NCBI RefSeq assembly: GCF_988242995.1
Contig: NZ_OZ547043.1
Reading direction: 5' to 3' (one strand)
Length of the DNA stretch: 64,000 nt
The position numbers are program-made. Within the stretch, counting starts at the first letter, position 1. Every line of letters begins with the position of its first letter. Of the stretch, positions 18,001-21,000 are shown piece by piece.

Positions 18001-21000
18001 CTGAAATTATGAGTGCCAGTAAAGCTACGTTTACAGTTTTCATTCATTTTCTCTTGTTCAAAATAAGTCGCATTAATGTTTCTATAAGAAACAAATAATA
18101 TTGTTTTAAGAAATAAACTGCGTTGCAATTTAATCGAAATCTACGCCGCCATTTGTGTGATGTAAAGCGCATTTTTGTCTGGTGTAAGCGTAAACACAAC
18201 CAATAAGAAACAAAAAATGTTTCTTATATAAATAAAATCGAAAATCATTTTGTGCTCTTTCAATGTAAAAAAGAGTAAAGACTTGTTTTGATAAGCGAAA
18301 TAAATTCTGTTTCTGGACTAAACGTGAACCGGTTTCTGATGTGTGCTAAAATGCGTTTCTTTGATAAATCTCAATTTTTAAGAGGTTTACGCCAGGCAGG
18401 AAAATTTAAATGAATGAATTTGAGAAGATTTTTAATGAAATGAATCTGGACCGGGCATTGCTACCGATCCTTTTTCGTTCGAACCGGTCAACAGTGTGGA
18501 AATATTTAAGTGGCGATAGTACGGCTCCTGCCTCAGCTATGTCACTGATTATGCTGTTGCAGTTAATCCAGAAACGAAACCCCGATCTGTTAGCCGAATG
18601 GTTAACGCTTTCTGATTTCACCATTCCGCCAGAAGTTTACCTGGACCAGCCTGATTACTGGAAAGGGTGGGTGTATACGCAACACAAGGTCAATAAAAAC
18701 GTCCTGGAATATCTAAAAAAACATTATCCGGATGAAGACCAAAAAAACATGAATAAAGGTAGTGACGAGTAATTTGCCAATGCCAGTTAATATAGCGGAG
18801 GCGGCCTACGATTCGGGCGCAGACTTCCAGGCATGATAAGACGCGCCCGCGCCGCATCAGGCATCAGCGCATAACCGCCGGATGCGGCGTAAACGCCTTA
18901 TCCGGCCTACAATTCGGGCATATTTTGTAGGCATGAAAAGACGCATCAGCGTCGCATCAGGCGATGACCGCACGGATAATCAGCGTTATCCCTTCTATCG
19001 CAATCACCTCAACATGCGTACCTGCACTGAGATCCTCGCTGGCGCTGACAGGCCATGAACTGTCACCGACGCGCATATGACCTCGCCCGTTGACCAGCGG
19101 AGATTCCAGCACAAAACGTCGGCCAATAAGCTGCTGCCCGCGCTGGTTTAAATGACTGTCGCTGTGCTTTTGTTCGCGCACCCGCCGCGACAACCATTTC
19201 CACCACAGCCAGGCGGCGAGCAGCGTCAGGACGGCAAACATCACCCCTTGCCACTCCCAACCCAGCGGCACCAGCCAGACCACCAGACCGGTAATCACCG
19301 CTGCCACGCCGCTCCACAACAAATAACCATTTCCGCCCAGCATCTCGGCTGCCAGCAGCAACCCGCCGAGACTGAGCCAGAAAATATGTGGATGAACGAC
19401 CATTAACTCCATCATGGCTGAGTCCGTTTGTTGGCGCTGTCTTTCACCAGCTCGGCAATCCCGGCAATCGACCCCATCAGGCTGCTGGCCTCTAATGGCA
19501 TCATCACTACTTTGCTGTTACTGGAGGAACCGATCTGCTGTAACGCTTCGGTGTATTTCTGTGCTACGAAGTAGTTCACCGCCTGAATATCGCCGGAGGC
19601 AATGGCTTCAGACACCATTTTGGTGGCGCGGGCTTCTGCTTCAGCGGAACGTTCACGCGCTTCAGCCTGTAAAAACGCCGACTGACGTTCGCCTTCCGCT
19701 TTCAGGATTTGCGACTGTTTTTCACCTTCGGCTTTGAGGATTTCCGCCTGACGGATCCCTTCCGCTTCAAGGATGTAAGCGCGTTTGGTACGTTCCGCTT
19801 TCATCTGCGCGTTCATTGAAGAGATAAGCTCTGCTGGTGGGCGCACGTCGCGAATTTCAATACGGGTGACTTTAATCCCCCACGGGTTGGTGGCCTCATC
19901 GACAATACGCAGCAGGCGTGAGTTGATGCTGTCGCGCTGAGAGAGCATTTCGTCAAGTTCCATTGAACCCAGCACGGTACGGATGTTAGTCATGGTCAGG
20001 TTGATGATCGCCAGCTCCAGATTGCTGACTTCATAAGCCGCGCGCGGCGCGTCAATCACCTGAATAAAGCACACGGCGTCGATGGTAACGTTGGCGTTAT
20101 CTTTCGAGATAACTTCCTGGGAAGGGATATCGAGCACTTGCTCCATCATATTGATCTTGCGACCAATGCGATCCATAAACGGCACCACCAGACTGAGCCC
20201 CGGCTGTAACGTTTTGGTATAGCGACCAAAACGTTCTACCGTCCATTGATAGCCCTGCGGCACGATTTTGACGCCCGCGCCGACAATGACCAGCGCGACA
20301 AAAATGAGAATCGGGATAAAGATAAGCATCGGAAAAACCTCCTGTTGTACCGTCCATAATCAGCAAAATTGCTGCTTGATTAAACAAATTATACCTGATT
20401 ACTGAAAGAGAGTTCCCCCTTATTCCTGGGAAGGATAAACTGTTTTTAGTAAAAATCAGAAAAAGGGAACAGCGATGCAGGAAAATAGTCCTTTGCTTCA
20501 GCTACAAAACGTAGGATATCTGGCGGGTGATGCGAAGATTCTTAATAACATCAATTTTTCGCTGCGTGCTGGCGAATTTAAGTTAATTACCGGTCCTTCT
20601 GGTTGTGGCAAAAGTACGCTGCTAAAAATAGTTGCTTCATTGATCAGCCCAACCAGCGGAACGTTACTGTTTGAAGGTGAGGATGTCAGCACACTAAAGC
20701 CAGAAATCTACCGCCAGCAAGTCTCTTACTGCGCCCAGACACCGACGCTGTTTGGCGATACGGTATACGATAATCTGATCTTTCCCTGGCAGATCCGTAA
20801 CCAGCAGCCTGACCCGGCCATTTTTCTCGATTTTCTTGAACGCTTCGCTTTGCCGGACAGCATTTTGACGAAGAATATCGCCGAGCTATCTGGTGGTGAA
20901 AAACAACGCATCTCATTGATTCGTAACCTGCAATTTATGCCGAAGGTTTTATTGCTGGATGAAATCACCAGTGCGCTGGATGAAAGTAATAAACATAACG

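Follow-up and report, generated by a model that had tools for sequence, protein, structure and literature searches.

A BIME-2 array at the ybbJ end of the variable cueR–ybbJ interval in Escherichia coli

A window of 64,000 nucleotides (nt) from contig NZ_OZ547043.1 (assembly GCF_988242995.1), which is Escherichia coli chromosomal DNA, carries an array of repetitive extragenic palindromic (REP) units between the genes cueR and ybbJ, at positions 18795–18962. The array is almost certainly a canonical E. coli bacterial interspersed mosaic element (BIME) of the BIME-2 class, with the order delta-y, z2, y, z2. Comparison of many genomes showed that the array is what stays constant, on the ybbJ side, in a long-standing variable interval between cueR and ybbJ in Escherichia, and that its number of units varies by gain and loss of y–z2 pairs of about 100 bp. 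We regard the complete account, which joins this identity to a function at the RNA level and to a history of the locus, as probable. Within its long-known family the array is nothing unusual, and knowledge of REP and BIME elements is unchanged by it.

Anatomy and identity of the array

A REP is an imperfect palindrome of 30–40 nt that can form a hairpin and has GTAG at its foot; such units make up a high-copy family spread over the genome. A BIME-2 combines a z2 and a y unit, held together by a short linker and repeated in tandem, the copy number being different from strain to strain (PMC3333891). We aligned the units with y, z1 and z2 consensus sequences. Together with reading of the sequence, this gave three full units in alternating orientation and one collapsed y unit. 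The array begins with the collapsed unit, GCGGAGGCGGCCTAC (18795–18809, plus strand), which equals a y unit minus its loop and one arm, that is, a unit with an internal deletion, and which keeps its CTAC tail at 18806–18809. A tail-to-tail linker of 19 nt (18810–18828) leads to the left z2 unit (18829–18862, minus strand; consensus score 28/36), in which the GTAG foot has degenerated to CCAG. Then come a head-to-head linker of 14 nt (18863–18876), S-type by length alone and flanked by an inverted repeat, and a near-consensus y unit (18877–18910, plus strand; score 32/34) with CTAC at 18907–18910. The array continues with a second tail-to-tail linker, of 16 nt (18911–18926), homologous to the first, and ends with the ybbJ-proximal z2 unit (18927–18962, minus strand; score 28/36), with GTAG at 18927–18930 on the plus strand. 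The full units are thus 34, 34 and 36 nt long, and the GTAG/CTAC foot is retained in two of the three.

An earlier note on this DNA had described three to four palindromic units of alternating orientation at 18802–18962, overlapping the ybbJ stop. Consensus alignment bore this out, with three full units and the y remnant; the coordinates were right to within 7 bp on the left, and the stop codon does lie inside the terminal z2 unit. The array fills the gap between the stop of an open reading frame (ORF) of 120 amino acids (aa), at 18772, and ybbJ, and it is intergenic except for 6 nt (18957–18962). These are the ybbJ stop codon (18957–18959, TCA on the plus strand) and the codon before it (18960–18962), which is GCC in the sense of ybbJ and GGC on the plus strand, so that in the ybbJ sense the terminal unit starts GCC TGA TGC G...

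The segments 18802–18862 and 18903–18962 form a direct repeat at a spacing of about 100 bp and are 85–94% identical; the tail of the remnant together with its linker recurs at 18903–18919, 101 bp downstream. It follows that one y–z2 pair has been duplicated, which gives the order stated above. Tandem Repeats Finder did not report this duplication of about 100 bp, just a 7-nt micro-repeat, so the duplication rests on the repeat search. At the position equivalent to the remnant, a full y unit is found both in locus L011 (the E. coli representative of GTDB, SCPM-O-B-8794) and in E. whittamii; the left flank (...gttaacatt) of L011 is as in the window and is followed directly by the full y unit.

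The palindromes cannot be put down to chance, as was clear from motif enrichment and consensus alignment. The REP core GCCKGATGCGRCG occurred five times in the window against 0.67 expected, none of 100 shuffled sequences reached five, and three of the five cores fall within a 113-bp stretch of the array. Full-length consensus matches likewise numbered five in the 64 kb and none in five shuffles. When a 361-bp query was searched against the complete E. coli genomes, it had matches in 5425 of 5426, with a median of 25 matching places per genome. The Rfam family RF02564 (naRNA4) matched the minus strand at 18830–18907 with 71.9 bits, the gathering score being 59.5. Folded in the sense of ybbJ, the hairpins of the left z2, the y and the proximal z2 units had predicted energies of −14.3, −21.1 and −12.6 kcal/mol; for the proximal z2 (z −3.4) and the y unit (z −3.1) the folding was well below that of shuffled sequences, and in the plus sense the y unit reached −21.6 kcal/mol (z −4.5).

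The likeness to BIME-2 lies in the alternation of y and z2 units, in head-to-head linkers of 14 nt and tail-to-tail linkers of 16–19 nt, in the lack of a site for integration host factor (IHF), in the tandem repetition of the pair with a strain-variable copy number, and in the location between convergent genes. It departs from a typical BIME-2 in that the terminal z2 unit reaches into coding sequence by 6 nt and so is not wholly extragenic, one y unit has collapsed and one z2 unit is without GTAG. BIME-1, whose hallmark is a long L linker containing an IHF site, was considered and rejected, as no match to the IHF consensus WATCAANNNNTTR was found in the array and the head-to-head linker is short (14 nt). 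In K-12 (NC_000913.3) there is no intergenic space at cueR–ybbJ and so no named REP counterpart; the locus is therefore absent from REP lists based on K-12. Among the described elements, the array resembles REP325/naRNA4 (RF02564; yjdM–yjdN in K-12) in its y–z2 pair and its position in a 3′ untranslated region (3′UTR). REP325, however, consists of six repeats inside a tandem operon, whereas this array has three to four units between convergent genes.

The cueR–ybbJ interval in Escherichia and related genera

We surveyed the interval between cueR and ybbJ across the 5426 complete E. coli genomes and found that three haplotypes cover 99% of them. The compact haplotype, present in 3204 genomes (59%) and exemplified by K-12, has the cueR stop abutting the ybbJ stop with 0 bp between them and no REP. 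A second haplotype (1378 genomes at a threshold of at least 80% coverage, O157:H7 included) combines the BIME with a cassette encoding a YadA-like adhesin and ending in the 120-aa ORF; 808 of these 1378 genomes have a right junction like that of the window. In the third, found in 800 genomes including A3 and Nissle 1917, a gene of 407 aa is followed by a single y unit and then by a z unit with an internal deletion. The numbers of arrays with two and with four units could not be separated genome-wide by coverage thresholds, O157-type arrays being joined as two pieces.

In every non-compact locus examined (nine E. coli loci and five Escherichia representatives), a z unit lies over the ybbJ stop. 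The number of units differed: one full and one partial in A3 and E. albertii, two in loci L005, L011, L091 and L093, three and a remnant in the window and O157, four in E. whittamii, five in MOD1-EC7003 and eight in E1V33. The flank GGCTATAT followed by a y unit, linker, z unit and ybbJ is common to loci with the YadA cassette (L005, L091, E1V33) and to A3 with the 407-aa gene, and because both types of cargo have this right flank, the core y–z pair is to be assigned to ybbJ rather than to the adhesin cassette. The earlier note had left it to a comparison of strains whether the BIME was backbone or island. It proved to be neither, being absent from the compact allele and also present beside the 407-aa gene.

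Two loci were particularly informative. In strain EC12 (L091, 749–4110), cueR is followed by a frameshifted gene of the 407-aa type, the whole YadA cassette, a two-unit BIME and ybbJ; this composite may approximate an ancestral state of the locus in Escherichia, and haplotypes with a single cargo would then have arisen from it by deletion. In L011, the cassette is almost wholly deleted, into cueR, and the two-unit BIME is kept (4530–4620). The 112-bp gap between ybbJ and cueR there is made up of the BIME and about 65 bp of the 120-aa ORF's 3′ end, and because this end is fused into the end of cueR, the C-terminus of CueR is altered.

The BIME had also been said to mark the junction between an acquired adhesin module and the conserved genes. 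As regards position this was right, since the array lies between the 120-aa ORF and ybbJ, but the exact edge is elsewhere: the divergence from K-12 reaches about 28 bp into ybbJ (window 18957–18985 compared with L002 1949–1977). Over the final 30 nt of ybbJ, the window and K-12 are different at 12 positions, and further upstream there are 0–2 differences per 30 nt. Judged by this divergence, the segment that varies with respect to the compact allele extends over about 16348–18985 and takes in the BIME together with about nine codons of ybbJ, of which the REP accounts for the last two to three. With respect to the 407-aa-gene haplotype, cargo-specific DNA stops at the left edge of the BIME. We found no source elsewhere in the island for the divergent ybbJ tail of K-12. 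In terms of identity, the last 30 nt or so of ybbJ are about 60% identical between the alleles and the rest of ybbJ–qmcA about 97%.

We also looked for traces of the mobility of the interval. Among its ORFs, Pfam searches revealed no transposase or integrase domain and matched only YadA_anchor, and no Y1-transposase gene stands beside the BIME, as it would in a REPtron (a tnpA-REP/RAYT gene flanked by BIMEs). Flanking direct repeats or att-like sites were limited to weak pairs at chance level, such as GGCGATGAC, shared by cueR and ybbJ, none of them convincing as the ends of an integrase-type island; the interval is bordered by the cueR and ybbJ stop codons. No REP was found where the cassette adjoins cueR or between the two cargos of EC12, and the cassette is therefore not bounded by REPs on both sides. 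The suggestion that REPs serve here as landmarks of insertion and recombination is compatible with the data, although a REP at the cueR end, direct repeats and a transposase or integrase are all missing. The locus resembles the variable hotspots between core genes of E. coli, of which the O-islands of O157:H7 are an example, in having a fixed pair of genes, cueR and ybbJ, with alternative cargos by lineage. It is unlike them in that the interval is tiny (0–2.7 kb) and has no tRNA gene, integrase or att repeats, and in that one of its borders is a REP array rewriting the end of the flanking gene.

For comparison with other genera, one genome per species was scanned, which yielded 80 loci: 75 from outside Escherichia and five Escherichia representatives, namely four non-coli species and the GTDB E. 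coli representative. The scan did not recover E. fergusonii, which is therefore missing from the outgroups within the genus. In 47 of the 75 non-Escherichia loci, cueR and ybbJ abut or slightly overlap (gap −9 to +5 bp); in 49 the gap lies between −47 and +5 bp, and the remainder hold other inserts. Compact outgroups include Enterobacter, Klebsiella, Kluyvera, Lelliottia, Trabulsiella and Salmonella arizonae, and the REP core was found in the interval of none of the 75 loci. The YbbJ tail of these outgroups is like that of K-12 (...AVSS*): it reads ...AVSST* in Salmonella arizonae, while Citrobacter has ...AVSQ* or ...AVSH*. The YbbJ of E. albertii, E. whittamii and the Escherichia spp. E1V33 and MOD1-EC7003, by contrast, ends in ...AVIA* with a z-type REP over the stop; the cargo beside the BIME is the 120-aa ORF in E. 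whittamii and E1V33 and a 407/442-aa gene in E. albertii and MOD1-EC7003. The arrangement in the outgroups and their YbbJ tails indicate that the compact state is ancestral for the family; the BIME allele, being present in these other species of the genus, is old within Escherichia.

We thus lean towards a change from the compact to the BIME allele. In the ancestral enterobacterial state the stops of cueR and ybbJ would have abutted. Early in Escherichia, DNA with a z-type REP in it would have been inserted in one lineage and taken the place of the last ybbJ codons, changing AVSS* to AVIA*, and cargo genes between cueR and the BIME would subsequently have been gained and lost. The compact allele, which persists in 59% of E. 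coli, may reflect retained polymorphism, re-acquisition or deletion. The gain and loss of pairs of about 100 bp would fit models of slippage, of unequal exchange or of amplification by the REP-associated transposase TnpA-REP.

Inserts at the same site were also seen in other genera. Locus L016 (4460–7315) and about 20 further loci from Citrobacter, Phytobacter, Kosakonia, Intestinirhabdus and Leclercia contain an insert of about 2.85 kb without REPs, which encodes an exported protein of 714 aa (no Pfam match) and a DUF3142 protein of 238 aa. Because of this insert, the cueR–ybbJ site is a hotspot beyond Escherichia as well.

Possible function and rival explanations

Two transcription units converge on the array and have their 3′ ends there: the plus-strand 120-aa ORF and the minus-strand qmcA–ybbJ. 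REP325 has been described as terminating and stabilising transcripts from within the 3′UTR, and the presence of REPs between convergent genes goes along with higher expression of the two (bioRxiv 10.64898/2026.03.23.713779). By analogy, the most likely function of the RNA hairpins of the array is a local one: they would stabilise the 3′ ends of both convergent transcripts and partly terminate them, a role equal to the dual one reported for REP325. A function at the RNA level is, in our opinion, about evenly balanced between right and wrong. In a scan for terminator-like sequences, the hairpin of the proximal z2 unit was followed by UUUUCAU (TTTTCAT) in the ybbJ sense, and on the plus strand the region of the y unit and its linker was followed by CATATTTTGT.

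Because the first hairpin begins inside the region of the ybbJ stop, it might also stall terminating ribosomes and lower the output of YbbJ. REPs no more than 15 nt from a stop codon cause ribosome stalling and reduced expression, according to the account of Liang et al. (2015) given in PMC12306157. The array resembles the translation-damping REPs of Liang, Rudd and Deutscher (2015), such as that of nrdAB, in that its hairpin starts 3 nt before the ybbJ stop, within the limit of 15 nt. It differs from them in that the stop codon is inside the stem itself. At the level of DNA, the y units are likely to be gyrase sites by analogy with K-12, where BIME-2 elements are preferentially bound by gyrase and its cleavage is enriched in them, chiefly in y units (PMC6379681).

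In K-12, cueR and ybbJ are reported to form a convergent excludon (PMC12288877). The cassette with the BIME abolishes the head-on overlap of the K-12 type and adds REP hairpins at the 3′ end of ybbJ, so that the regulation of qmcA–ybbJ, and possibly of cueR, may differ by lineage with promoters unchanged. In about 40% of E. coli genomes the stop codon of ybbJ is supplied by a repeat, and the NCBI annotation pipeline PGAP leaves the REPs unmarked there. The interval is a compact and easily typed hotspot, with the length of the BIME array as a further polymorphic marker. The practical value is small; of modest interest are the repeat-supplied ybbJ stop, genus-wide, and its place as the constant element of a hotspot with three haplotypes.

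Several observations weigh against the account given so far. The left z2 unit lacks GTAG, and its hairpin folds no better than shuffled sequences (z −0.37). Five more substitutions in the 18 nt upstream of the REP-derived codons of ybbJ go beyond what the REP accounts for. All the non-coli Escherichia sampled carry the BIME allele, so that the compact allele of E. coli would have to be either a retained old polymorphism or a re-acquisition, which tells against the direction of change proposed above. Terminator-like matches numbered three against 1.9 expected in shuffles and were thus not in excess, and every step of the functional proposal is drawn by analogy.

Two rival explanations concern the origin of the array. 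The BIME could be the right end of a mobile adhesin island and have arrived with it, which would agree with its absence from the compact haplotype and its constant position directly next to cargo. This is quite unlikely, because the y–z pair, the GGCTATAT flank and the overlap with the ybbJ stop accompany an unrelated 407/442-aa cargo in A3, Nissle, E. albertii and MOD1-EC7003, because L011 retains the BIME after losing nearly all of the cassette, and because the YadA cassette of EC12 has no REP at its other end. The BIME could, on the other hand, be ancestral Escherichia backbone, the compact junction of K-12 being the product of a secondary deletion of the cargo, the BIME and the ybbJ tail. 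All four non-coli Escherichia representatives and the GTDB E. coli representative have a REP-terminated ybbJ, K-12 has demonstrably undergone deletion beyond cueR (a 98-bp HlyD pseudogene remains), and TGATTAAG at the cueR stop is common to K-12 and A3. We nevertheless consider a secondary deletion doubtful: the 47 compact loci outside Escherichia speak against it, and the K-12 tail AVSS*, for which the rest of the island offers no source, resembles the outgroup tails AVSST* and AVSQ* and does not look like a deletion scar.

The other two rivals concern what the array does. The y–z2 pair might be the gene of a naRNA4-like nucleoid-associated RNA that binds HU and organises the chromosome; the match to RF02564 exceeds the threshold, and read-through transcripts in the ybbJ sense would contain it. 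RF02564 was, however, built from the REP pair REP325, so that any y–z2 pair will score, and REP325/naRNA4 is reported to cause no measurable nucleoid compaction and to be a local 3′UTR regulator (bioRxiv 10.64898/2026.03.23.713779), which makes such a role very unlikely. Alternatively, the BIME might be the mechanistic cause of the turnover of cargo, by way of the REP-associated transposase or insertion sequence elements. In vitro, BIMEs undergo cleavage and recombination by TnpA-REP, whose cuts can fall hundreds of nucleotides from them (PMC3333891), the number of units and the left edge of the array vary among strains with the same cargo, and the cargo is invariably to the left of the BIME. 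Against this stand the lack of REPs at the cueR end and between tandem cargos, the lack of direct repeats around the cassette and of a transposase or integrase in the interval, and the REP-free insert of 2.85 kb in Citrobacter and other genera, from which it follows that the hotspot needs no BIME; we therefore hold a causal part of the BIME in turnover to be unlikely. Equally improbable, in our view, is a combined scheme in which a z-type REP rewrote the C-terminus and stop of ybbJ in an early ancestor of Escherichia and anchors a three-haplotype polymorphism across species (compact, 407-aa gene and YadA cassette), cleavage or recombination at the BIME drives cargo turnover, and the hairpin around the stop lowers the ratio of YbbJ to QmcA in lineages with the BIME.

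The variable cassette, neighbouring genes and further observations

In the window, the variable cassette, which the earlier note called the adhesin module, occupies 16348–18794 and has a G+C content of 33–50%, compared with 50–59% in its flanks. Its members are a 67-aa ORF (minus strand), a 140-aa lipoprotein-like ORF (minus strand), a YadA-anchor autotransporter gene of 338 aa (17027–18043, minus strand; Pfam YadA_anchor, E 2.7e-12) and, as the last gene, which adjoins the BIME, the 120-aa ORF (18410–18772, plus strand). The product of the last had no Pfam match; by eye, it contains a helix-turn-helix-like stretch. The ORF is retained with the cassette, also in E. whittamii, and is divergent from the YadA-like gene across a region of 33% G+C (18044–18409), where long AT-rich direct and inverted repeats lie at 18059–18252. 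It may encode a local regulator with the AT-rich region as its operator. In loci L092 (strain 118UI, 2478–3578) and L093 (2510–3241), an extra 0.4–0.7 kb is present between the YadA-like gene, which encodes 350 aa there, and the 120-aa ORF, so the adhesin gene and the region upstream of it are polymorphic.

The complete genome closest to the window is that of strain TUM14771, with 99.5% identity over 3.6 kb and identical gene annotation. A giant ORF of at least 4197 aa with about 62% G+C (12..12605) runs off the start of the window, and type I secretion genes (ABC/permease and HlyD, 12609–15943) lie between it and cueR. Of the HlyD gene upstream of cueR, K-12 and many other strains retain a frameshifted remnant of 98 bp (L002 1447–1544), which means that K-12 carries a deletion on the HlyD side of cueR. 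On its left, the variable interval is bordered by the conserved gene cueR itself (15940–16347, plus strand), an ORF of 135 aa annotated as cueR in TUM14771. On the other side, ybbJ (18957–19415, minus strand) was assigned from its ORF and a Pfam NfeD match to the NfeD family; qmcA, fetA, fetB and cnoX follow in this order.

One of the assemblies in the outgroup scan looks mislabelled or contaminated: in L028 (CACSKA010000001.1), titled 'Chryseobacterium sp. 18061', the cueR–ybbJ locus is enterobacterial and nearly identical to that of 'Citrobacter sp. 18056'. Elsewhere in the window, a degenerate REP-like core was seen at 21938–21950, between fetB and cnoX, where the gap is 62 bp here and 182 bp in AVS0153. 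A single z-type REP core lies at 52071–52083 and a z2/y pair at 53521–53591.

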